DNA of 64,000 nt from NCBI GenBank assembly GCA_964106915.2, contig OZ066915.1; one strand, 5' to 3'. Of the stretch, positions 1,130 to 52,450 are shown one piece after another (position 1 is the first letter of the stretch; every line of letters begins with the position of its first letter). A program made the translations under genes and the position numbers. The stretch comes from Podarcis gaigeae (taxonomy: Eukaryota). A model generated the notes under the pieces. That model made no database searches and had not been told where the DNA came from. It saw nothing but the letters and a program-made list of their open reading frames with translations.

Positions 1130-1535
1130 GTATTTATTTATTTTTATTTTATATCCCTCCTTTATCCCAGAGCAGGACCCAGTGCAGTTCACAGCATGTA
1201 TTAAAACAATTTAATTAAATGACTATGCCTATACCTATTGAAAGCAGCCCTATTAAAAGCAACACTTAAAACTATTAAATAGCAGAACGACAAAAGAGAA
1301 AAAGAAAATGTACACCACCACTCTCAGAAGACCTGTTTGTGGACAAAGGCCTGTCTGGACAAAAGATATATTTGCCTGTCTGGCGAAAGGAAGGTGGAGA
1401 GACAGCTAGGCTGGGCTGGTGTCACTATCAGGGAGTAGCCACTGAGAAGGCCCCCTCTTGTGACCTCACCAAATGTGTCTGTAAGAGGTGGAGGAACCCA
1501 TAGAAAAGCCTTCCCAGAGGATCTCAAAGCCCCCG
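1130..1535 (-). mobile_element. L2-clade LINE 3' end
   Basis: (TTTA)n tail at ~1130-1150. The minus ORF RSSGKAFLWVPPP resembles the L2 ORF2 C-terminus (LRSSGEALLxVPP). Confidence 0.6.
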
Positions 1536-2173
1536 TAGGATCTTTCTTCTTCTTTTAATATGCCTAAGTTATTTTGTTTTGCTGGAGGAACTGGTGGCAT
1601 GCTGAGTCAGAGGGATGTGCTTGGGCTCTCTTGTCCTTTTAGTGTTTTACAAGGTATAAGAGCAAGGCACCCAAGAGATTATGACATACATTTTTTATTT
1701 ATGCATTTAAAAATGCAAACTGCACCTTTTAACCTATAAACAAGCAAGGTTCTCAAGGGTGGTTACAACCATTAAAACACAATAAAGGTAATTTTAAAAC
1801 ATAATAAAATATACTGCGTAGCTAAAAAAACACACACCCTAGAACTTCCATTCTTCACAGCAGCCAAGCACTTTACATCCCAAAGGCCTATGAATATAAA
1901 ATAATATATATTAAATATACAAGTATAAATTAAACATCCAATAAATATTCAATTAAAAACTTTGCTTCTGTTCATGTTGGACCTGAGTCTAAGGGATCTC
2001 ATTATGGCTGCATAAAAACCCGAGGCTCTAAATATGCTGAACTTGGGAGATGTATAGTTTTAGAATTAGGCAAATTTATAAGGGAGGGAGGCTGAGTTAC
2101 AGGCGGTCATGGAGAAACATAAATGCTAGGCAGGGAGAGAGCAGATGTAAAATCAAAGCAGATGTCAAGCCCT

Positions 2174-2174
<1 letters not shown>

Positions 2175-2208
<34 letters not shown>
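2175..2208. repeat. (TG)n microsatellite
   Basis: Direct reading. Confidence 0.95.
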
Positions 2209-2211
<3 letters not shown>

Positions 2212-2228
2212 TGCACGTGTACATACGC

Positions 2229-2436
2229 CAGTGGTGCCCAAACTTTTTTCGAGGAGGGCCAGATTTGATGAAGTGAAGGGCCGTGAGGGCCAACCAAAGT
2301 TGTTGCACTTTTTAAAGAAATTGTTGAGCTTTTTTTTTTTAGAGTTGAAGTTGTTTAGGGTGTTTTTGAGGATTTTACCCCATAAACTGCCGAAGGGGCC
2401 GGATTAGGCCCCCAAAACGGACTTTGGACATGTCTG
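2229..2436 (-). mobile_element. Complete ~208-bp hAT MITE forming the left arm of the composite element
   Basis: Its own termini are CAGTGGTGCCCAAACT and ACTTTGGACATGTCTG (rc CAGACATGTCCAAAGT). The inner flank TGGTAGAG (2437-2444) also fits nnnTAnnn. Confidence 0.75.
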
Positions 2437-2586
2437 TGGTAGAGCCTTTGGCCAACAAGGGAATCAAAGGTGTGCTAAAGGTGGGAAAGGAGATTGCAGA
2501 GGAGCTGAACGGATTATTTGCATCTGTCTTCAGAGCACAAGACTCGCAAGTAACATAAAATTAATAAGGTGAAACAGGAGAGATGT

Positions 2587-3390
2587 GAGCCGGGAAGGGT
2601 GACGGAAGTGCTGGCCGGGCGGCGACTCACCTCACAGGCAGTGCGCCATCCCTTTGGCTCAGGCGAGGCGGCGGCTGCTGCTGCTCGGTGACCTCCTCGC
2701 CCGTCTCCTCGTGAGGGAAACGCGGCGTCGGGGCGCCTCCGGTGGAGCAAGGCCGCTGGCCTTTGCCTTCCCCTCCGCCTTCCTCCTTTTCGCCGCGCCG
2801 CCTGCGCCTCCGCTGCCTCCCGCTCTCGGCGGGCCCTCCCGGGCGTCGGGCTCCGAGGGCGAAGGCGCCCCTCCTCAGCCCCACTCCACCACGCCCATCT
2901 GCAGCAGGGGCCCCGCCGCCGCGCTCCCGCCAGCCGCCCTGGCCGCTTCGCCCGCCTCCTCCTCAGGCTCGAAGCCCAGGTTGTCCCGGCTCCAGGCCTG
3001 CCTCGAGCAAGGTGAGAGAGGCAGCGACGGTGAGCAAGACGAAGGAGGAGGAGAAGGAGAAGAAGCGCCTACGACGACGACTCCGCCGCCGATGCCCGGC
3101 GGGTCCCGCAGCCGCCCCAGCTCCAGGCCGCCAGGAGGGCAAAGTCCCACCATGGCCCCCCGACCCTGGACAAAGGCCGCCTCCGCCTCAGAAATTTTCT
3201 CTCAGGCTGGCCGAGTAACGGCGCGGGAAGGGAGCGCCTTCGCTTTTTCCACTGCCCGCCTTCCAGCCCCCCATCCCCGCCCACAGCGCGCCACCTCGCA
3301 GGGGGAAGCAGGCTGGCGGCTACACGGGCCACATGACGAGGTCTGGCGGGCCGGATTCGGCCCGCGGGCCTTATGTTTGACACCCGTGAC
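2587..3390. promoter_or_regulatory. Imported CpG-island-like segment
   Basis: An abrupt, very GC- and CpG-dense block in an otherwise CpG-poor intron. GC box CCCCGCCC at ~3275-3282, upstream of the PKD2-like ATG. Activity is not shown by sequence. Confidence 0.6.
2631..3153 (-). pseudogene. PKD2: Duplicated, disabled copy of PKD2 (polycystin-2) exon 1 with its splice donor
   Basis: The frame from ATG 3153 reads ...[17 protein letters not shown]...SPSPPPSSC...[18 protein letters not shown]...MGVVEWG*...RLA*AKGMAHCL*G|gtgagt. Human PKD2 exon 1 as I recall it: [24 protein letters not shown]...[26 protein letters not shown]...MDVEW...RVAWAERLVRGLRG|. Length is 523 nt (phase 1), followed by the donor GTGAGT at 2630-2625. 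In-frame TGA at 2877-2875, 2661-2659 and 2634-2632. The middle (SGRQRRRRRR...QRPC) fits better in a shifted frame. Confidence 0.85.
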
Positions 3391-3488
3391 ATACGCACAC
3401 ACTGGTATTTTACTGGGCCTTGAGTACATTTACAGGGCCCCATAAATCATATACACAAGGCCCTTTTATGAGCACTGCACACCTACAT

Positions 3489-3521
3489 TGTGTGTGTGTG
3501 TGTGTGTGTGTCTGTGTGTGT
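3489..3521. repeat. (TG)n microsatellite, interrupted
   Basis: Direct reading. Confidence 0.9.
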
Positions 3522-6124
3522 ATTAGCATTAGCCAGGCACAGAAAGGGAAATAGCACTGGATCTTAGAAATCCAGAAAGGTTGGTGGAGGGGCGAGCCTC
3601 TCTCTCTCCAAGCAGCACCGACATTTATCTTTCCTGCAGCAGTGTTTAAAGTGAAAAGGGAGTATCAGGAGAGTTTGATAGGATCCAATTAAATTCTAGC
3701 AGATAAAATAATGATGAATTGCAGTTGAGCCCCGGCGAGACATGATGCGCATTACTGCCCTCCCTATAGTGCTGGGAAGGCATTGAGGTCATCAACTATA
3801 GAAAAATAGGACACAGTTGCAACTGTACTATTCGTGCAGAAAACAGCCTAGGGAAATGAAGTTGGAAGCTGATTGTGTGAGTATATACGTTCAAGGTGGA
3901 TGTTCCCACTGTAACATGGTTGTTTATGAGTCTATGAGATTAGCGGACAGGCCGTATTCCTTGTTGAGAGCCTTTCTCTTTAGCCATTGCACACACTCTG
4001 GATATGGGACTGACCAAAAATAAACAAAAATATTAGATACATAAGCTTCTTACTGTGATGGAGAGCATTTTTACAGGTTTGTACTTCTCTGAATGAATGA
4101 AATAAAAGTTCAGAATAGGTCCACTAAGCAAGCGTTGATAAAATTATCCATTGAATTGCTGAGATTGCTTACCTTTTTCAAACCCCTCCTTGGTGCAGCT
4201 GGGTGCGTGTTTAACGTAAACTAGTCTTGCTAGAGTTCCCCTATTAGAATAAATAAGTAAAATACATTGAAGGGACTATTGTTAGTCAGGAATAGCATGC
4301 ATTACTTAAGAGTGTGAGAATCGGGAATGAGTAAAAACATTTCATTTCTTTCATCTTTGGGGTGGACTGAAACTTTCTCTAGCCTGTTTCCAAAACCATC
4401 CATCTGAGTGTTTTGTTTCAAGTGCTTTTGATACTTTGGTGGAACATGGTAAAGAGAAAACTCATCAGAAAACAATCTGAAAAACTCCAAATACAGTATC
4501 CTGGGGGGATATAGGCAAATCCCTTCATTTGAGTTTAAATCTGGACTGATTTGGAGCCTTGTGGAGACAACACTGTAAAAGTGTAGCATCTTTCAAGGAA
4601 TTCACTAAGGTGTTCATGAGGTGTTTATTCCATACTACAGACATTTGGAGGGTGGGATGCCTAGTATAAAGATCTTGGGCATCTTAGCTTTCACATTGAA
4701 GAAACAGGGCCTAGCCTGCCTAATAATAAAGATGCTGAAAACGTGTATGCCATGAGCATCTTATTTTTCCTCCCCCTGTTACGTTCCTCTGTAGTGGATC
4801 TTTTGCACTGGATTCTGATGCTCTTCCTCCTTTCCTTCCTCTGCCTGTGTTTCCATATCTATACTATGTCTCTGGGTGTCCTTCTGCATCCATCTGTTTG
4901 CTTGCTTATCATGCTGTGTGCCCATCTGTGTAAGTTTCTATCCACCTGCATATGTGTGTTCCTCTGATTTCTAAAGACAGATCATTTGTTTTGAATATTT
5001 GGTGTAGACTTTGGAAACAAGGAGCATTGGTGGTAGACTTGCAACAGGTGATGGATTTCTCAGTCAAGAACGGAGACAACATTATGTCAAAGGATGGAAG
5101 CAGGCAGGCAGCTAGTATCCACTTTGGCCCACTCATAATTAAGGACAGCCAGGATAGGCTAAGAAGTTGGTAGGGACATTAAATAATGTTTATGATGTGC
5201 CTGAGTCCTTGGGTTCATTGAATTTTGATGCCACATAAAGTCCTTTCTGCCGCTAAGTGAAATTGTCAGAGTGCCACCCATGTTTTGTCAGCCTCTTACT
5301 GTGTATAGCCACATGGGAAGTCTGCATGACTACATGGTTTAGGCATGTTATAGCCTCTGTGTAGATTGCTGCTTGTGGAGATACTTTTATGCTCTACTGT
5401 TGAGATATGGAAGACAAAATTTGGACCTTGATGAAGGGTGGGGTGGGGAGACAGAGCTGCATAAGGCAGCTCAGTTTTTATGGACTCTCTCATCCTGTGT
5501 TGGATCCCGCCTTCTGACCAGTGTGAGCCAATGCCATGTTTCACAGGGAAGAAGAGTTTTGACACGCACCGGGGTGTGAAGAATGCTAGACATTCCCAGG
5601 GCGGGAGCAGAGGAAGCTGGGCCATCTCAGGTATAAAGCGTTGCTTGGGATCTCCTATCTTTCTTTCAGACATCCTAACCTTTATCCGAGAGAGCTGAAT
5701 AACAGATAGGAACCACATGCTAGCTTCACTCAGAGAAAATAGAGGGGCAGGAGACAGACTTTTCTACACAAAGGTTTCCAAACAGACCAAGCTGTGAAGC
5801 CATTGCTGAAAGTTGGCTTGTGAACCCTAGCTTGTTTGGAAGCCATTTACCATAGTTTCCTGGCTTGCATGAAACAGGAAATGAAGGTGCTTCCTGGCTT
5901 GTTTCCGCACATGGGTGAAAGGACAACCAATGCAGGGTCCATACGGGGTGCGTTCAGGTTCATGGAACTCATGCATATCCTCACTTGCTAAACCAGGATC
6001 TGAATGTCCAAATATGGCCATTGATTAATTTTAATCTTACTGTATTGTATTAATATGTTGCCAGCTTTCTGGAGGTTGCTTTTAAAGTTTGTAAACCACC
6101 ATAAAATCTTGAATGAAGATCAGC

Positions 6125-6360
6125 GGGACCAGAGTTCAGTGGTAGAGCAGCTGTTTTGTACACAGAAGGACCCACGTTTAGTTTTTGGCATCTCCAGTTA
6201 ATATAGAACCATTTAATCCATTTAGTCCACTTTGATCTACTCTTACTAGCAGCAGCTCTCCAAAGCCTCAAGCAGGGATCTTCCACGTAATCTGCTAGTA
6301 AATCAGAGATGCCAAGGGACTGAATCTTCTCTCATTTGCATGCAAAAGATATGCTTTACG
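6125..6360. mobile_element. Two decayed tRNA-derived SINE fragments in opposite orientation
   Basis: Plus-strand tRNA-like head (AGTTCAGTGGTAGAGC...CAGAAGG...GGCATCTCCAG) at ~6125-6200. A similar reverse-complement copy lies at ~6235-6360. Confidence 0.45.
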
Positions 6361-7827
6361 TGCCCTAAATTTGGTCCTGTCCCAAATTGCACACTTTTGG
6401 CCATTTCAGCAATTTAATGAAGAGAAAAACAATGCCAAGAAAGTTATTTGATATTACCCCCCCCCCCGTTTAATTAATTTTAGCAGATGAAAATAAGAGA
6501 AGCCACTACTATATGATTACCCAGCCTTCTTCAAGCCGCTTCTTAGAAACCCATTTTATATAAAATAATTGCACTGAAGGTGGCTTGTCCTGCTTTTACA
6601 GCTGATTCTTTCAGTTGAGGCAAAATGGCCTGTTGTGAGCACACAGAGCAGAAATCCATGCACATCTCGGTGTTCGTTGTGACAAAGGCCTCTCACTTTG
6701 CGTACCGCTCACTTTGCGTATATTGTTATTGTTGTTGCAACTCCCTCGTGTGTAAAATGAGGATTATAAAATAGATTTGCTTCTCACATTCTCCAATGAA
6801 GGCTGCGAGAGGGCAGGTGGGAGTGTTGATTAGTTACTGTGTAAATTTCTGTGGTGCGTAATTGCAGAGTGTTGTAATCTAAATATATGTATTACGGAAA
6901 GTAAAAACAAATCCTGTTTGAGCTTTCAAGGCATGCACAGGATCCATCTGGGTATCTGTCAACAACAAATAAATACAGCTTAAATGAAAATAATTGGAGT
7001 GCGGCCAAGTCTTGAGGTCAGGGATCTGTAGCAATCACGACTGGCAAATCAGCAAGACAAGTGCAGGAGCTTTTGTTGTAGGAGAATGGCACAGAGCGTC
7101 AAATTCAGGCTAGTCTGGTTAAATGCTCTTCTTCTTGGTGCTTTCCAAAGATGCACTCATCTATGAATACAATACCTCTCTACCCCCACCCCGCCCCCTT
7201 AAGGCACTTGCCACCAGATGCAATTTATGAGTGTTTGGATTATTCATATCTTCCAGTTGATTCCCTTTAGATCCTGATTTTGATAATCTGCTTAGTAAAT
7301 TCTTCAAGAAGAAACAGGGCAGAAGACTGACACTTGGGTTGGACCGCCAAGCGGGGAAGCTTGATAGTGTATATGTACCAACAGTTCAACTATTAGGTCT
7401 GAAGTAACAAGTAGTACTGTTAACTTGAGAAAAACCAGCATTAGTCATTTTCACTCAGATGTGTAGATATTCATTCTCATTAGTTAATGGTGATTTATTG
7501 ACAGCCGTTTCCACTAGAAACTAGATTTGTTTGTGGGGCTGGTCGTATATGTATTGGGGTGACTGTCCCCCAAAGTCAAGAAAATTGGGTAGCCAACATG
7601 GTACCCTCCAGTTGTTTGTGAATTACAATTCCCATCGTCCCTACCACTGGCCTTAATTGTTGGGGCTAATGAGAATTGTCATTGAACACCTCAATGGCTT
7701 CTACTCCTGTTATGTCTTGCTATTCCAGAGATCCAGTTACAGATAGGTAGCCGTGTTGGTCTGCCATAGTTAAAACAAAAAAAATTCCTTCCAGTAGCAC
7801 CTTAAAGACCAACTAAGTCAGTTCTTG

Positions 7828-7865
7828 GTATGAGCTTTCGTGTGCATGCACACTTCTTTAGATAC
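7828..7865 (-). ncRNA. Type I hammerhead ribozyme motif with G5A core substitution
   Basis: Minus strand GUAU-CUAAAGA-A-GUGUGCAUGCACAC-GAAA-GC-UC-AUAC. Identical to the 8483-8520 copy except at 7859. Confidence 0.75.
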
Positions 7866-8482
7866 ACTGAAACAGAAGTTTCCAGACCCTTCTATATAGT
7901 GAGAAGGTGGGGAGGGGTATTACTCAGAAGGGTGGTGGGAATGGGTGATTGGCAGATAGCTGTGATGAGCCTGTTGACAACTCTTAACGACTGCAATAGG
8001 TCTTACAGGAAAAAGCAAGGGGTGAAAAGGTGAAAAATGACTTTGTCATGTATAATGAGATAAGAATCCAAGGTCTTTGTTCAGACCAGGTTTCTCCATG
8101 GTTTTAAGTTTAAATCGGACATCAGGAATCACAAGACAGAGAAACCAGTAGGAGAACACTTCAATCTCCCAGGACATTCTATACAAGATCTCAAAGTAGC
8201 TGTTTTACTACAAAGGAATTTCAGAAATTTATCACCAAACTTAAAACCATGGAGAAACCTGGTCTGAACAAAGACCTTGGATTCTTATCTCATTATACAT
8301 GACAAAGCCATTTTTCACCTTTTCACCCCTTGCTTTTTCCTGTAAGACCTATTGCAGTCGTTAAGAGTCGTCAACAGGCTCATCACAGCTATCTGCCAAT
8401 CACCCATTCCCACCACCCTTCTGAGTAATACCCCTCCCCACCTTCTCACTATATAGAAGGGTCTGGAAACTTCTGTTTCAGT

Positions 8483-8520
8483 GTATCTGAAGAAGTGTGC
8501 ATGCACACGAAAGCTCATAC
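8483..8520 (+). ncRNA. Minimal type I hammerhead ribozyme motif (PLE-type), intact core
   Basis: GUAU (stem I), CUGAAGA, A, GUGUGC-AU-GCACAC (stem II), GAAA, GC, UC, AUAC (stem I). Stem III is the palindrome AGCU. Predicted cleavage is 3' of C8516. Confidence 0.82.
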
Positions 8521-8863
8521 CAAGAACTGACTTAGTTGGTCTTTAAGGTGCTACTGGAAGGAATTTTTTTTGTTTTATTCCAGAGATGTTATTTTGTCTA
8601 TGTATAGTGTGGCACGGCAGAAATTTGAAAGGCCAATCCAGGTAGCACTTTGTCATAACTATTAACTCAACCAATAAAATATCTTTAGAAATGTGTATTT
8701 ATAAACATTCAGATGGCATCATGCTACTACTAAGACAACAAATCAGCAAGCATTAATTCTATTTTTATAGCCAGCCTTACCTCATTTTATGTTTATTTGG
8801 AAATAAGCTGCTTTGATGTTGGTGAGAGTAACTTGCAAATAAATGCACCAGACCCTTGTTATA

Positions 8864-9089
8864 CAGTGGTACCTCGGGTTACATATGCTTCGGGTTACAG
8901 ACTCCGCTAACACAGAAATAGTACCTCGGATTAAGAACTTTGCTTCAGGATGAAAACAGAAATTGTGCTCTGGGGGCGTGGCAGCAGCAGGAGGCCCCAT
9001 TAGCTAAAGTGGTGCTTCAGGTTAACAACAGTTTCAGGTTAAGAACAGGCCTCCAGAACGAATTAAGTACTTAACCCGAGGTACCACTG
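8864..9089. mobile_element. Tc1/mariner (Tigger/pogo-like) MITE
   Basis: 18-bp TIR CAGTGGTACCTCGGGTTA / TAACCCGAGGTACCACTG, TA flanks, internal (TTCAGGTTA) repeats. Confidence 0.9.
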
Positions 9090-11679
9090 TATATTGTAGA
9101 ACATTTACAATCTGGGTTGTTAAGTAAAGGGAAAAAGTGACACAAACACACACATAACTTTCAGTTTCAATACATATCAGCATGAAGATTCTTATCTGCG
9201 TCAACAATTATGGCCACAATACTATGGGGTATATACTTTGCATATACTTTGAATAAAGGGTGAGATTTTCTGTATGTGCCTTTAAGAGGGTTAAAAATAT
9301 CAAATGGCATAGAAAATAAAAACAAAGTAGAAGCACGAGTAAGTGTTTGGCTTTGTCTGTGTAACTCGAGCATGTGGTGTCAGACTTCTGGCCAAAGCTC
9401 GAGCTTGTTGGCTGCTTTCTGCTCTGTCTCCTCCAAAACACCCACCTTCCCTGGCTTCCCCTCTGGCTCTTGGGATGCATGTCGGGCTCCCTTCCTATAC
9501 ACAGTGTTAGGAAATCCAGGAATAGTTCAGGCTGTTGTTGGCAAGAACCAAAATCTGGCTTGTTCTTCCTCCGGTTGAGTCATGGAGAGACTGGCAACTG
9601 TGAAGGCAGACAGATTCCTAGTTCTTTCCCGCCCCCCAGATGTGCCGCTCTGTCCTTCTTTCTGTCCATGGAAGAATTGAAAGAGACAAGTTAATCTCTT
9701 TTAGCATGTTCTTTAATGTGCACAAACATGGTGGGTGTGTTTTAAGCAAGCCACTCGTCTTCTTTGCAATGATTCTTAGTTCTCCAAAACAGCAGATGAC
9801 AGGGTAGAACCTATGGTATATCGAGACAGCAGGTAAAGGCTCATATTACTGACTCGCCTTCCACACCGCACACAGAAAATGAGAGGTCAGGATTCCACCC
9901 TAGCTCTAGTTTTCTGTGCATAAGCTATTTTGGGATTCTTCTCCAGTACATTCTACAGGATGTAACTGAGCTTCCTCTTTCTACCCCTGCAATGGCTTGC
10001 TTTAATGGTGTTGTTTACAAGGCAGAAGTAGAACGCTATCAGGAAATGTTTCCAGAGTTCTAGATAAGTGGGACTCTTGAATTAGTTGTAGCAATATTGT
10101 GCTATCTCGGTTCTGATGTTCCACAGTCTTTGGCAGAACAATGAGAGTGAGATCTGGATTTTGAAAATTGTTGTGGGCTCAACTCTCTCCCACAACCCAC
10201 TCTCCTGCCAGATAATGATGGCAAGGAAAGAAAAGTGTAGTGCTGCTTATTTCAGAGGGCAAATAGTGATGATGATGATGATGATGTTGATGAATTAAAA
10301 TACAATAAAACAGTCACAGCAATTAAACATTAACGTGAAGCAGCAGCAGAGCAGATAAAATATTAATATTGTTAAAGATAGAACAAAGTTGTTTTATTCA
10401 TTTATGCTGCTTTTAATATAGTCTTTTGTTTTTGCAAGCTTCCTTGAACTATATGAGGAAAAGTGGGGTATAAACATTTCAGATATATATATATTTAAAG
10501 CATGAACTAGATCAGTTACCTAACAATCTTTGGGATCATTTATGTGGGAATCAGTATTGTGCACAGTGGTTGTGGGAGACTTTTGTCTTGATAAATTATT
10601 GGCTCATAGTGTGAAGTTTCATTTTGACTCAGTCAAAACCTGTTGTTTCCAATCTCCCACAAATCTTGCTTACTAAGGAAGGCAGGCCTGCATTTCCTGA
10701 AGCAGAAATGCACCTCTCTCCTACATGTGAGTTTCTTTTGTCAGTGCAGGCACCTGGAGGGTTAAATAATCTCTCCCCGCTTCCCCCTACTCCACACCCA
10801 AATCAGAAGTAACTCATTTCCAAAAGGAGCCAGGGCAGAGAAATGCAAATAAGTGTTTCGGACAGCTGCAGGCTGTATGCCTTCCTGAGATGCCAGTGCC
10901 CCAAATGAGACATGTCAGAGTACAAATTGAAAATGCCAATTTCACTTACTCTGCCACGCTGCTCGTCACAGCTAAATCCTTCTCTGCCGCCCCTCCCCCC
11001 ACACTTTCCACTTACCGAATGATGGGTGCTTCTCCTTAATGTAAATCTCCCTGACTTCTTGGGTTATTTCTGCAGTGGGTCTCTTCAGCCAGTCTTAGTG
11101 GGACACAGCTACAAAGGAATGGGAGGGGAAAAGGTACACAGAAACCCTTCCCTCATCCATATTATCTGAATGTCAGTTATCTTCTAGTGATCCATATTTA
11201 ACTCCTGTACTGCGTAAAGGCCTTATTGATGTGAGCTTACAGTAGCTGTACCCCCATTTATCTGAACTTCTGGTTGTTTCGGTGCTGCCCAGCCCATTTG
11301 TATAAAAAAAAATTCTGGAATTTGTGTGAAGTTGCTTGGAATGTACTGGGTATATGTTTATCTAGGTACAGATGTAAATATAAACAGTGACTAACAGATT
11401 ACTTTTTTAGAACGGAACATTTCACCTCCTGCCTTCCTCATTTGCCCCGCTGCGAATTCAAGTCCACTGGGCCAGAATTTTTTCCCCTTGTTTCCAGTGT
11501 TCTTGGATCGGGTGGCATTGCCATTGCAATAATGGATAAATCAGCGAGGGGGTGTGGCTATCTGAATGGAAGTGTTTTCCAATTGGTTGTTGCATCCCCC
11601 CCCCCCCCCAAGATTGGCTGTGTGAAATTCTAAAGCATTTGTGTGCATCAGTTGCTGTTTTTAAGATGGAAAATAAGAG

Positions 11680-12351: not shown

Positions 12352-12738
12352 AAGGTAAAGGTAAAGGTATCCCTGCCCGTATGGGCCAGTCGTGTCCGAC
12401 TCTAGGGTTGTGCGCCCATCTCACTTAAGAGGCCGGGGGCCAGCGCTGTCCAGAGACACTTCCGGGTCACGTGGCCAGCATGACGAGGCTGCTCTGGCGA
12501 GCCTGCACCAGCGCAGCACACGGAAACGCCGTTTACCTTCCCGCTATAAAGCGGTACCTATTTATCTACTTGCACTTAAGAGTGCTTTCGAACTGCTTAG
12601 GTGGGCAGGAGCTGGGACCGAACGACGGGAGCTCACCCCGCCGTGGGGATTCAAACCACCAACCATACGATCGGCAAGTCCTAGGCACTGAGGTTTTACC
12701 CACAGCGCCACCCGTGTCCCTACAGCGCCACCCGCATC
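12352..12738 (-). mobile_element. Sauria SINE, full length
   Basis: Minus-strand A box TGGCGCTGTGG, B box GGTTTGAATCC, (ACCTTT)n tail. TSD TCTCTCTGGATGTA at 12338-12351 and 12739-12752. Confidence 0.9.
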
Positions 12739-14869: not shown

Positions 14870-15111
14870 CAGTGGTACCTCGGGTTACATATGCTTCAGG
14901 TTACATACGCTTCAGGTTACACACACTGCTAACTCAGCAATAGTGCTTCAGGTTAATAACTTTGCTTCAGGATAAGAACAGAAATCAGGCTCTGGTGGCG
15001 TGGCGGCAGCAGGAGGCCCCATTAGCTAAAGTGGTGCTTCAGGTTAAGAACAATTTCAGGTTAAGAACAGACCTCTGGAACAAATTAAGTACTTAACCCG
15101 AGGTACCACTG
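14870..15111. mobile_element. Tc1/mariner (Tigger/pogo-like) MITE, second copy
   Basis: Same TIRs and TA flanks as 8864-9089, with one extra internal repeat unit. Confidence 0.9.
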
Positions 15112-15316
15112 TATAAGTGCTGCCCCTGGATTTTGGAGACTTTGCATTTGACCAGAGTGTCTTGCTTGGGACCACAGATCCAGATGGGTACACTTAGAAC
15201 GGGTCAGAAGAATGCAAAGCTCCCCTGTGGTCTGTGGTCTGATTCCTGATGTATATCTGTTTCTTTCTGTCTGAGGGTGCCTAATGGACTCTTTTCTCTT
15301 GTGTTTCCTCTGGCAG

Positions 15317-15413
15317 TATTCCTATGAAGGGAATGGCATCAGTGACCTCCCGGTGAACCTTTCCGTGGTATGGAATGGGAACTTCATCATTGACAATCCC
15401 CAGAACATCCAGG
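15317..15413 (+). CDS. PLXNA1: Plexin-A1 exon (YSYEGNG...NPQNIQ)
   Basis: ggcag|TATTCC...CAGG|gtaagc; 97 nt, phase 0 to 1. Confidence 0.95.
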
Positions 15414-16426
15414 GTAAGCTGATGAAGTCGGGTGGGGTGGAGCACCCTTGGCAAGATACTGCAGGAGTTCCCTGCAATGAACTGCTTCTGCATTCCACTT
15501 CTGAGCCATCCACCTCAGGGCCAGATTGACACTAGTGCACCCCTACAGGTGTAAAATCAAATATTATGCTAGCCTGAGCAAACAAGCTTTCTAACACAGA
15601 GCAAAGTTAGAAGTGGTGGTCTGGGGATTACTGGTTTCTCTCCTGCCCATCAAAGTGCCTTGACCCTCCAAACGCGGTGTACTTGCTCTGAAACATTTTC
15701 TTGGTAGTGTGCTGTCCTTGTAAACATGCCCAGCCATTCAATAACTCGTTTGAGACTTAAATGCACGTTCACTTCCTAGACATAAAATGAAATCACTTTG
15801 AAGGCTGCTTTACGATCCTGGCTCCCGCTGCAAGGAACTTAGGACATGATAGTTAGGTTAGTTCTGTAATGGGCAAAGATTATTTCACACACACACCAAA
15901 TAAATTCACAACATTCTTACAAAATCGTAAACCTCAGAGTTATTTGGGGAAGCCGTGACAACTATGCCAGTTCAAACCACTTGAAATTTGTGACCCTGAT
16001 TGTGGCTTTCAGCTGAGATCCTAGCACAGGGAAAGGCAATGTTGTGCCTTTCATATGTTGGTGGATTGCAATTCCCAGCATCCCCGGCCACCATAGCCAT
16101 AGGCTGGGGATGATGAGAGTTGTAGTCAGCAGCATGTGGAGGGCACCACTGGGTTATCCCTTCATTAGTGGATAGGCATTTGCATCATAAACAAATCCCT
16201 TGCTGGCTGTATTCAGTAGTGAAAGCTGAAAACTATATAGGCAGTGAATACTGTCAAAACTGGCCTGATACGACAAAGCATATGGAAGGTGGTAGACCTG
16301 AGGTCCTTTAGTGGGCATTGTCAACAATTACCCATCAGAGGGGGAATCTGTGTAGCAGTTCTGTCCCCACCCCACTCCCCAACTTCTTTTTGAATGTAAG
16401 CAGGGATTTGTGTTTTCTTCTTGCAG

Positions 16427-16617
16427 CTCACCTATACAAGTGCTCAGCTCTGCGCGAAAGCTGTGGGCTGTGCCTCAAGGCAGATCCACGCTTCGAGTGT
16501 GGCTGGTGCGTGTCAGAAAAGCGATGTTCCCTGCGCCAACATTGCCCAGCCTCTGAGAGCAGCTGGATGCATGCCAGCAATGGCAATAGCCGCTGTGCGG
16601 ACCCCAAAATCATTAAG
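16427..16617 (+). CDS. PLXNA1: Plexin-A1 exon, PSI domain (HLYKC...[16 protein letters not shown]...DPKIIK)
   Basis: ttgcag|CTCAC...ATTAAG|gtatgc; 191 nt, phase 1 to 0. Confidence 0.96.
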
Positions 16618-50333: not shown

Positions 50334-51696
50334 TTTCTTCCTTTCTTCTTTGGTGATCACTCGTAGCCGAGTAAGATTGTCTTCCATAGACACAGTTTTA
50401 ACAATGAGTTCGCAAGTGACTGTGGAGGCCATTTCTGGACCCACACGTCCTTCCACAGTGGAGACATTGGTTTCTGGGTGGGAGTTGATCACGGTGTGGA
50501 TTTGCCAAGCGTGCCTTCCTCTTAGTATGTTTCTCCCTTGCGTCCTGAGTTTGAGTGTCTTCAAAGCCCATGACACCTTTGGTAAAGGCTGTTCTCCAAC
50601 TGGAGCGCTCGCAGGCCAGTGTTTCCCAGTTGTCAGTTTTTATACTACATTTTTTTAGATTTGCCTTGAGACAGTCTTTAAACATCTTTTGTTGACCACC
50701 AGCTTTATGTTTTCCATTTTTAAGTTCGGAATAGAGTAGTGGCTTTGGAAGACGATCATCAGGCATCTGCACAACATGACCAGTCCAACGAAGTTGATGT
50801 TGAAGAATCATTGCTTCAACACTGGTGATCTTTGCTTCTTCCAGTACACTGATATTAGTTTGCCAGTCTTCCCAAGTGATGTGTAAAATTTTTCGGAGAT
50901 ACCATTGGAGATGGCGTTTATAAGTGGTCCATGTTTCACAAGCATATAGTAAGGTTGGTAGTACAATAGCTTTGTAAACAAGCATTTTGGTTTCCCTTCA
51001 AATGTCCTGGTCCTCAAACAATCTGCACTTCAATCGGGAGAAAGCCAGACTCGCAGAGCTCAGACAGTGCTGGATTTCAGCATCAGTGTTGGCCCTTGTG
51101 GAAAGATAACTGTCTAAGTAGAAGAAGAAGTCAACATTTCCCAACGTTACACCATTGAGTTGGATTTGTGGCGCTGCAGAGGGGTTATTTTGTACTTGTT
51201 GGTGTAGCACTTTGGGTTTTTTTGGATGTTGAGTGATAGGCCAAGCTTTTCATAAGCTTCTGCAAAGATATTTAGGATGGTTTGGAGGTCATCCTCTGAG
51301 CGTGCGCACACTACGTTGTCATCAGCATACTGAAGCTCTATGATGAAAGTTACAGTAACCTTACTCTTTGCTTTCAGCCTGCTCAGATTGAAGAGCTTCC
51401 CATCTGTTGGATATATGATTTCTGCTCCGGTGGGGAGTTTCCCTTCGACAAAGTGTAGGATCATGGCAATGAAAATAATGAATAGAGTTGGGGCAATAAC
51501 ACAACCCTGTTTAACACCTGAGCCCACTGTGAACGGTTCACTTTGAGAGCCATTGTTATCTGCGATTGTTGCTGTCATATTATCATGGAGGAGCTGAATG
51601 ATGTTTACAAATTTATCTGGGCAGCCAATGTTCAGAAGGACAGTCCATAGGGCATTACGATCTACAGTGTCGAAAGCCTTAGTCAGGTCAATAAAC
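50334..51696 (-). mobile_element. 5'-truncated RTE-clade LINE (RT plus C-terminal Cys/His motif), frameshifted
   Basis: FIDLTKAFDTV, GVKQGCVIAPTLF and LQYADD motifs, then LRWTGHV and CLHCGRTC...LHSHLRTH, spread over three frames. (AAG)-type tail. ACCATC flanks at 50328-50333 and 51697-51702. Confidence 0.93.
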
Positions 51697-52063
51697 ACCA
51701 TCACAGCACACTTGTTCCTATAGGGTTGTCACTTTCAGAACATAAGCCAGACCCACACACTGTTTGATCCATCAACCAGAACACAGCCTGCTGCCAAAGG
51801 CAGGCTGCAGCAGCAGGAAATTAACTGGGCAATGGGCTGCATTTAGCTTGTTGGGTAACAAGTTGTGCAGGCCTCAGTTTTTATGGGAAAGTGAAAGAGA
51901 AGGTTTATGGGCATTGATAATGTGCTTCCTCGTGCAAGCACAGATCTGCTCTTCTAGGAAAACAAAGTCAGGGAAACTCACCATTTAATCAGAGCAGAAC
52001 GAGAAAATCGGCAGGAATTATATTTGAGCCGACTACGTGAGAAATAAGAAAAAATAAATTTTA

Positions 52064-52450
52064 GAGACGTGGGTGGCGGGCGCTGTGGTCTAAACCACTG
52101 AGCCTCTTGGGCTTGCCGATCAGAAGGTCGGTGTTTCGAATCTCCGTGACGGGGTGAGCTCCTGTTGCTCGGTCCCAGCTCCTGCCAACCTAGCAGTTCA
52201 AAAGCACGTCCAAAAGTGCAAGTAGATAAATAGGTACCGCTGCGGCAGGCAGGTAAACAGCGTTCCTGTGCACTGCTCTGGTGTCGGTGTTCCGTTGCGC
52301 CAGAAGCGGCTTAGTCATGCTTGCCACATGACCCGGAAAAACTGTCTGCGGAATAGACAAACATCAGCTCCCTCGGCCAATAAAGTGAGATGAGCACCGC
52401 AACCCCAGAGACATTCGTGACTGGACTTTACTGTCAGGGGTCCCTTTACC
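52064..52450 (+). mobile_element. Sauria SINE, full length (different subfamily from the 12352 copy)
   Basis: Head GTGGCGGGCGCTGTGG...TTCGAATCTCC; shared core AAGTGCAAGTAGATAAATAGGTACCGCT; 3' end CCCTTTACC. Confidence 0.88.

Follow-up and report, generated by a model that had tools for sequence, protein, structure and literature searches.

A three-ended hAT-type element carrying a decayed copy of PKD2 exon 1 in Podarcis, and the possible routes of exon capture

We identified the element at positions 2229-3388 of the window (the whole 64,000-nucleotide stretch of DNA analysed here) as a non-autonomous Pack-hAT of the Buster/Charlie type whose ends come from two families. The odd three-ended build of this element is real, and the route by which it captured exon 1 of the kidney gene PKD2 is not settled. 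Most likely, the last step was the pairing, by a Buster-type transposase, of a 75-bp outer end with the far end of a 208-bp MITE that belongs to another family. That a transposase paired ends of mixed family at some point is probable; that this pairing was what captured PKD2 is a claim we make tentatively, and at least three other routes yield the same three ends. Each ingredient of the element is known already, and their combination is a variant with a readable history. The coordinates and the minus-strand order proposed by the sequence-only reading (a first type A end, the cargo, a second type A end, a type B end) all held on re-examination, and the features of the locus are as follows.

2229-3388: whole element, 1.16 kb, bracketed by an exact 8-bp duplication, ACATACGC
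2221-2228: left target site duplication, ACATACGC, of the Buster-type form nnnTAnnn
3389-3396: right target site duplication, ACATACGC
2229-2436, minus strand: MITE-like arm of 208 bp with two hAT tips
2229, plus strand: tip CAGTGGTGCCCAAAC, end type B
2436, minus strand: tip CAGACATGTCCAAAG, end type A
2437-2444, plus strand: inner flank TGGTAGAG, with TA at positions 4-5
2437-2542, plus strand: LINE-like relic, stop-free frame up to the MITE tip
2543-2630, minus strand: beginning of PKD2 intron 1, which passes into an AT-rich linker, with the donor GTGAGT at 2630
2631-3153, minus strand: coding part of PKD2 exon 1, dead, with two frameshifts and three stops
3154-3313, minus strand: GC- and CpG-rich stretch, defined by composition and absent from the Podarcis lilfordi copy of the outer end
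3314-3388, minus strand: outer hAT end of type A with a CAC tip, 75 bp, apparently of a second, dispersed family, broken internally at 3314
3388, minus strand: tip CACGGGTGTCAAAC, end type A with a CAC start

The limits of the element are marked by its target site duplication. Both copies of ACATACGC directly adjoin the outer tips 2229 and 3388, and TA stands at positions 4-5 of the 8-mer, as in the nnnTAnnn duplications of Buster-type hAT elements; TA at these positions is given as the target preference of the Buster group in two papers (10.1101/2022.09.16.508221; PMC3517528). An exact 8-mer match at the same spacing was found in 44 of 1,346,154 sampled position pairs, an empirical background of 3.3e-5, and because the insertion site is a purine-pyrimidine tract the local chance rate of such a match may exceed this value. 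A (GT)n tract (2175-2228) faces an (AC) tract (3389-3402) across the element, so that the empty site would form a quasi-palindrome. A CpG-rich stretch drops off at both ends of the element, and no transposase is encoded within it. The 64-kb window held no second copy of any part of the element, and no second copy of the whole unit was found in the protein sets, which contain predicted proteins only and make a weak test. The query of these sets with the sense frame returned four matches (two gecko PKD2 fragments and two unnamed short matches), none of the seven ORFs of the element was present in the protein collection, and no Rfam family was found within 1500-9500.

The three tips resemble Anolis hAT terminal inverted repeats (TIRs). 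Every one of them matches the hAT-N5_AC TIR, as printed in PMC3014272, at 13 of 16 positions, a score reached at only four sites on both strands of the 64 kb and exceeded at none. Tip 2229 further matches the hAT-HT3_AC TIR at 13 of 14 positions, the single best site in the window (PMC3014272). The best match of tip 3388 (16/18) is to a family labelled TcMar-N15, with a TA duplication, in the same paper, and the CAC start of this tip deviates from the YARNG start stated there (PMC3014272); despite this match we take tip 3388 to be hAT, because the duplication present is 8 bp long. A GGGCC..GGCCC palindrome follows inward of both the 2436 and the 3388 tips and occurs nowhere else in the window, and these two ends are therefore assigned to the same type (A). 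Aligned locally, they agree in 34 of 57 columns, a score that 16 of 1000 shuffles also reach, and by this comparison the two type A ends appear to come from different families, about 60% alike. The 2229 end showed no significant likeness to either of them (371 and 360 of 1000 shuffles were as good). Thus the short imperfect TIRs with subterminal repeats characteristic of hAT elements are present, as are the second, distinct hAT 5' end at 2436 and the far end at 2229 described earlier. The outermost pair consists of one type A and one type B end, and hAT transposases are described as using an asymmetric pair of ends (10.1101/2022.09.16.508221).

The left arm is short and non-coding and has two inverted tips, as a MITE does. 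Its type B side carries three GGGCC motifs (at 2256, 2278 and 2287), its type A side carries a palindrome (2396-2411), and the 2229 end runs continuously into the arm. The arm had been called a complete MITE in itself; its 208 bp and two tips agree with this, but the tips are alike at only 10 of 15 positions and no free copy of the arm was found in the 64-kb window. The arm did not occur in a prokaryotic genome collection, as expected there, and two scans of that collection for stray host contigs carrying the element gave no matches.

The outer end could be delimited with the help of a second species. When the antisense frame 2603-3442 was searched against 1.84 billion protein representatives, the one match was the P. 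lilfordi protein CAI5769727.1, which is identical at 23 of 24 residues over 3317-3388, the unusual CAC tip included. This copy sharpens the hAT 5' end, previously put at ~65-80 bp from 3388, to 75 bp. The gene for CAI5769727.1 sits on a P. lilfordi sequence of 119.7 Mb, and P. lilfordi PKD2 sits on one of 77.0 Mb. R/W swaps account for the single mismatch and for the codon just inside it, the kind of change expected from CpG decay. From 3313 inward the identity ends, and a different GC-rich interior begins at the same base; G, A, R and P together make up 26 of its first 40 residues, which indicates the GC-rich DNA, and the interior had no named match in the homology searches. Beyond the tip the protein reads F and then a stop, a different flank; were that stop codon TAA or TAG, the flank would fit TA at positions 4-5. 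The 75-bp end may thus represent a young dispersed family, judging from one predicted protein rather than from DNA. CAI5769727.1 is a spurious gene model that reads through such an end, and the interior behind it may be either the usual one of the family or a second cargo, in which case this would be a second Pack element. That the P. lilfordi copy switches to other GC-rich DNA at the very same base could mark a template-switch hot spot. On our side the sequence around 3314 is GCC-rich, and the junction comes 9 nt beyond a fold-back of the outer end (7 of 200 shuffles fold equally well). Two other readings of this region were rejected and a third was set aside. We do not take the CAI5769727.1 interior for a rearranged PKD2 copy, since it aligns to 2798-2911 (44%) on the opposite strand and in low-complexity sequence; a splice junction behind the break at 3314 would need an AG acceptor, and none in the window sequence fits the reading frame; and a complete 66-bp element at 3323-3388 (CACGGG..CCCGTG) is disfavoured, as pairing covers no more than 6 bp and the same motif returns among the subterminal repeats.

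The cargo had been identified as PKD2, and our searches confirmed it as exon 1 of that gene. Its best match, among six that are full-length, was Podarcis raffonei polycystin-2 (E 1.5e-44). With the frameshifts bridged, the translation of 3153-2632 is identical to that protein at 154 of 171 residues; the corresponding values are 150/168 for P. muralis, 153/173 for P. lilfordi, 146/168 for Lacerta agilis, 147/169 for Zootoca and 107/161 for Rhineura, so that amino-acid identity to Podarcis is 88-90%. These values point to a lacertid genome, probably that of a Podarcis. The copy starts at the true start codon and stops at the exon 1 donor. It is interrupted by frameshifts near 2844 and 2660-2680 and by TGA stops at 2877, 2661 and 2634. 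Against a lacertid consensus 15 of 165 codons differ, with changes at 8 of 71 CpG-transition sites and at 7 of ~271 other sites. These differences and the excess at CpG sites indicate a copy that is diverged by a few per cent, decaying neutrally, and at least partly methylated. The observed/expected CpG ratio is 0.86 in the element vs 0.24 around it, and the element is still a CpG island. A retrocopy origin was rejected, since the splice donor and the start of the intron are present. A PKD2 fragment with its splice donor between terminal ends is cargo of the 100-5000 bp size range set for Pack-TIRs. The stretch 3154-3313 is probably the PKD2 5' UTR or promoter and could in part be the interior of the carrier element. 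In the gecko Eublepharis macularius, the 168-aa 'polycystin-2-like' model XP_054846375.1 ends at the exon 1 donor; it is either a split annotation or another exon-1-only PKD2 copy.

On the other side of the exon, the donor side of the copy is genuine: the end of exon 1 agrees with gecko models, and the first intron codons resemble a gecko read-through model. Further in, the sequence changes character. GC content falls from 0.77 to 0.27 within 2550-2640, and the translation of 2437-2542 seems to resemble an inner stretch of CR1 ORF2, the one that separates the endonuclease from the reverse transcriptase. The homology searches gave no confirming match for a CR1 identity of 2437-2542; they offered as leads a chordate RVT_1 cluster, at 0.79, and unnamed clusters, at 0.94. 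If the relic is CR1, it is an internal piece that points at exon 1 and ends 90 nt from the donor, and its whole 3' part has been lost. A second repair junction therefore probably lies within about 2543-2600. The sequence-only reading had treated 2437-2630 as PKD2 intron 1 running unbroken from MITE to exon; that contiguity is not borne out by the LINE-like stretch and the GC step, and a MITE inserted ~190 nt into PKD2 intron 1 becomes doubtful, as the LINE-like DNA beside the MITE ends ~90 nt from the donor at that step.

The inner tip of the left arm keeps its own record. At TGGTAGAG tip 2436 gives way straight to foreign DNA, the arrangement expected of an insertion junction, and TGGTAGAG is probably the surviving half of the MITE's own older target duplication. 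The proposal that this flank fits nnnTAnnn was right as to the sequence and its TA, but the fit is weak evidence alone, TA making up 5.6% of dinucleotides. At the opposite side of the cargo, the outer element's inner end and its whole interior are absent. Transposase does not cut inside an element. The junction at 3314, being internal to the outer element, must hence be due to deletion or template switching under every model.

These features suggest a path by which the PKD2 exon was captured as part of a macrotransposon. The 208-bp MITE would first have landed somewhere within PKD2 intron 1, in an old LINE fragment situated probably beyond 190 nt, and an element of the second family would have come to sit upstream of exon 1 in the same orientation. 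Once a transposase had brought the outermost ends together, a larger piece with four ends would have been mobilised. During abortive gap repair the inner end of the upstream element would have been deleted (the junction at 3314), probably together with part of the intron and the LINE (the junction near 2543-2600), which would leave 1.16 kb. This unit would finally have inserted into a plexin-A1 intron and decayed there. The path is the earlier model with the repair steps it needs and without its distances, and we consider it the single most likely one while granting it somewhat less than an even chance.

Several observations bear on this path. The outer ends belong to two elements in complementary orientation and share one duplication, as in a macrotransposon. 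With two families only ~60% alike, pairing by a transposase is favoured over recombination; at that level of likeness, TIRs and subterminal motifs may well suffice for a shared transposase while offering a poor substrate for recombination. Thus the claim of compound capture by pairing of the outermost ends gains from the two end families and from the insertion-like junction at 2436, but it is weakened by the missing fourth end. Two neighbouring elements would give four ends, and since only three are present in the window an extra deletion or template switch is needed; in this the unit resembles Ac plus fractured Ac, not two whole elements. As for mobility, Tol2, Tag1 and Ac require 100-200 bp per end (10.1101/2022.09.16.508221); the 75 bp left at the outer end falls below this and counts against mobility of the present form, and a left arm of only 208 bp for two ends counts in favour of it. 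Precedents for the movement of neighbouring insertions are available in plants: joint mobilisation in which the inner ends are lost has been modelled for Pack-TYPE elements (PMC8903248), and neighbouring insertions have moved together as maize macrotransposons (PMC9910405). Multicopy, transposed animal Pack-TIRs always lie distal to the parent gene, and ~40% of Pack-TIRs are also off its chromosome, with most single-copy cases put down to gap filling, according to the available text of PMC8277862. In anoles, hAT families commonly share ends, recombine and absorb genomic filler with old CR1 pieces (PMC3014272), so that compound capture is not required.

The exon could have been captured before the ends were exchanged, a route on the unlikely side in itself but close to the first in likelihood. 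An element of the outer family would have taken up PKD2 exon 1 and LINE filler by gap repair; the MITE would have inserted into it or been nested beforehand, and a transposase would have paired the 75-bp end with the nearer end of the MITE, so that the original far end stayed behind. The three ends would then be the work of a transposase and yet uninformative on the capture. This route is favoured by the repair junction at 3314, with its GCC-rich surroundings and the fold-back 9 nt away, and by the switch at the same base in P. lilfordi. Uptake of filler and sharing of ends are routine in anole hATs (PMC3014272), and gap filling with microhomology is the chief route for animal Pack-TIRs (PMC8277862). 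However, the MITE must land in a small target, and no longer sibling element was seen in the predicted-protein sets.

A second route, which we regard as decidedly unlikely, is repair or recombination in which the MITE serves as the homologous sequence. Synthesis at a broken or excised element of the outer family would have switched, by way of similar B ends, to a MITE near PKD2, copied the MITE, the LINE relic and exon 1, and then been rejoined to the 75-bp end; in a variant, two B ends would have annealed after a nested insertion. The target duplication would then belong to the original element, and the unit would never have moved as a whole. Such a single event accounts for the three ends together with the missing fourth, the (GT)n..(AC) quasi-palindrome at the target may be fragile, and recombination between elements is known in anole hobo families (PMC3014272). 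On the other hand, the A ends are only ~60% alike, and strand invasion would be unlikely if the unseen B end of the outer family were equally diverged.

Highly unlikely, in our estimate, is a composite insertion of the kind known from maize Ac plus fractured Ac, in which reversed-ends transposition is coupled to re-replication. Here the MITE and its LINE flank would have lain upstream of PKD2, facing an already fractured 75-bp end beside exon 1; the re-replicated flanks would have fused near 2543-2600, and the product would later have moved as a macrotransposon. This accounts for the LINE relic breaking off 90 nt from the exon, but it leans on a probable internal junction and on a presumed CR1 label, and the fractured end must have become fixed less than 160 nt from the PKD2 start codon. 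The same anatomy (intact element, flank, repair junction, flank, fractured end and 8-bp duplication) is described in PMC4270019, whose available text shows it for maize only. The state of parental intron 1 would not be decisive by itself: a MITE at the donor locus also fits gap repair, and a MITE-less intron 1 also fits composite insertion or a swap of ends. That a free MITE and a lone end came by chance to lie beside a segmental copy of PKD2 exon 1, with the 8-mer repeated by coincidence, is scarcely credible, for although the flanks are low-complexity purine-pyrimidine tracts, an exact match with a background of 3.3e-5 touches both tips, positions 4-5 of this match are TA, and the CpG-rich stretch drops off at the unit's two ends.

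Bacterial composite transposons consist of cargo bracketed by two mobile elements; these are IS copies, complete and almost identical, that together supply four ends and a transposase. The lizard element shares the bracketing, but the intact IS pair, the four ends and the transposase are all absent from it. Maize Ac/Ds macrotransposons, reportedly described by Huang and Dooner in 2008, are another parallel. Like these and the plant Pack-TYPE elements, the lizard element suggests outer ends that moved the intervening DNA as a unit (PMC8903248; PMC9910405). In those systems the inner ends are either lost or kept, and the partners come from one family or cluster with known donors, whereas here the partners are ~60% alike and one is cut to 75 bp. 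Maize insertions of Ac plus fractured Ac likewise have three ends, an internal repair junction and an 8-bp duplication (PMC4270019); the model for these composite insertions has a reversed order of donor flanks, and unlike the lizard element they span 10-36 kb and carry an autonomous element. Anolis non-autonomous hATs share Charlie-like TIRs, TA-centred 8-bp duplications, CR1-bearing filler and mixed ends, but the available text of PMC3014272 has no occurrence of the word 'exon' and puts the mixed ends down to recombination between close relatives.

The nearest animal counterparts are Pack-TIRs such as Xenopus Pack-hAT-N8_XT, which also has non-autonomous hAT ends, an 8-bp duplication and 0.1-5 kb of cargo that derives from a gene's 5' part and lies apart from the parent (PMC8277862). 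That survey reported 370 animal Pack-TIRs, 208 of them of hAT type; in the portion available, it lists none for Anolis, its sole 'lizard' row, and its 12 supplementary files make no mention of PKD2, PLXNA1 or Podarcis. The Pack-TIRs of PMC8277862 have both ends from the same element, but here no more than 34 of 57 columns agree between the A ends and one end of the unit holds an entire nested MITE. The element works like a Pack-TIR and yet falls outside the definition used in PMC8277862, unless the 2229 tip is of the outer family. The screen demanded both ends from one element and a unique parent at 90% DNA identity or more that is free of flanking TEs, with microhomology at breakpoints among its features, and is stated to possibly miss cases of end bypass (PMC8277862). 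How cut-and-paste transposons pick up genes is still debated between gap filling, replication switching and pairing of neighbouring elements; since mixed-family ends and TE-linked parents were excluded by design, the third route lies outside that survey (PMC8277862). Capture of a host gene by hAT elements is also known in fungi (PMC6710886). A search confined largely to openly accessible papers, without bioRxiv supplements, gave no report of the lizard element, nor of any vertebrate hAT that has three ends and carries a gene.

Because the inner tip and half of an older target site have been kept, comparison of lacertid genomes can decide the route of capture. A wider idea, which we think unlikely, is that wall lizards harbour a young family of 75-bp hAT ends that repeatedly pairs with unrelated MITE ends and so relocates CpG-island first exons within the genome. 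If so, this would be a vertebrate counterpart of Pack-MULE exon shuffling through two-element transposition, invisible to same-family Pack-TIR screens; the P. lilfordi copy would be a second cargo, and units of this kind would give rise to orphan CpG islands within introns.

The element probably lies in an intron of plexin-A1, upstream of 15317. The coordinates of the relevant exons are as follows.

15317-15413 and 16427-16617, plus strand: first two plexin-A1-like exons in the window

The best PDB match of the plexin exons was Plexin-A1 (E 3.4e-32), and the first of them encodes the second half of a TIG_2 domain (15275-15526). No earlier plexin domain was found in the 120 of 186 plus-strand frames scanned (at least 42 aa, starting in 1-30,000). 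With an exon that starts mid-TIG and no plexin domain upstream, the element is probably in a long intron with its cargo antisense to plexin-A1. The window contains no further PKD2 exon, and exon 1 alone among plexin exons places the copy away from its parent gene. The cargo is dead as protein, and any effect would be regulatory, through the CpG island or through an antisense first exon with a splice donor in a plexin gene.

Other repeats were noted in the same window. An inverted repeat at 7771-8577 has 341-nt arms that are 99% complementary and 125 nt apart, resembling what we take to be a young Penelope-type insertion with inverted terminal repeats. Two copies of a short element, at about 8864-9090 and 14870-15112, are 88% alike over 220 nt and have CAGTGGTACC tips and TA flanks; the element is probably a Tc1/mariner MITE. 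LINE reverse transcriptase frames (RVT_1, E 3e-21) lie at about 50398-51725 on the minus strand, presumably of RTE/BovB type. The sole other CpG-island-like stretch in the window, at about 12355-12720, has an 82% inverted partner at 52106-52192, and we assume it to be a squamate SINE.
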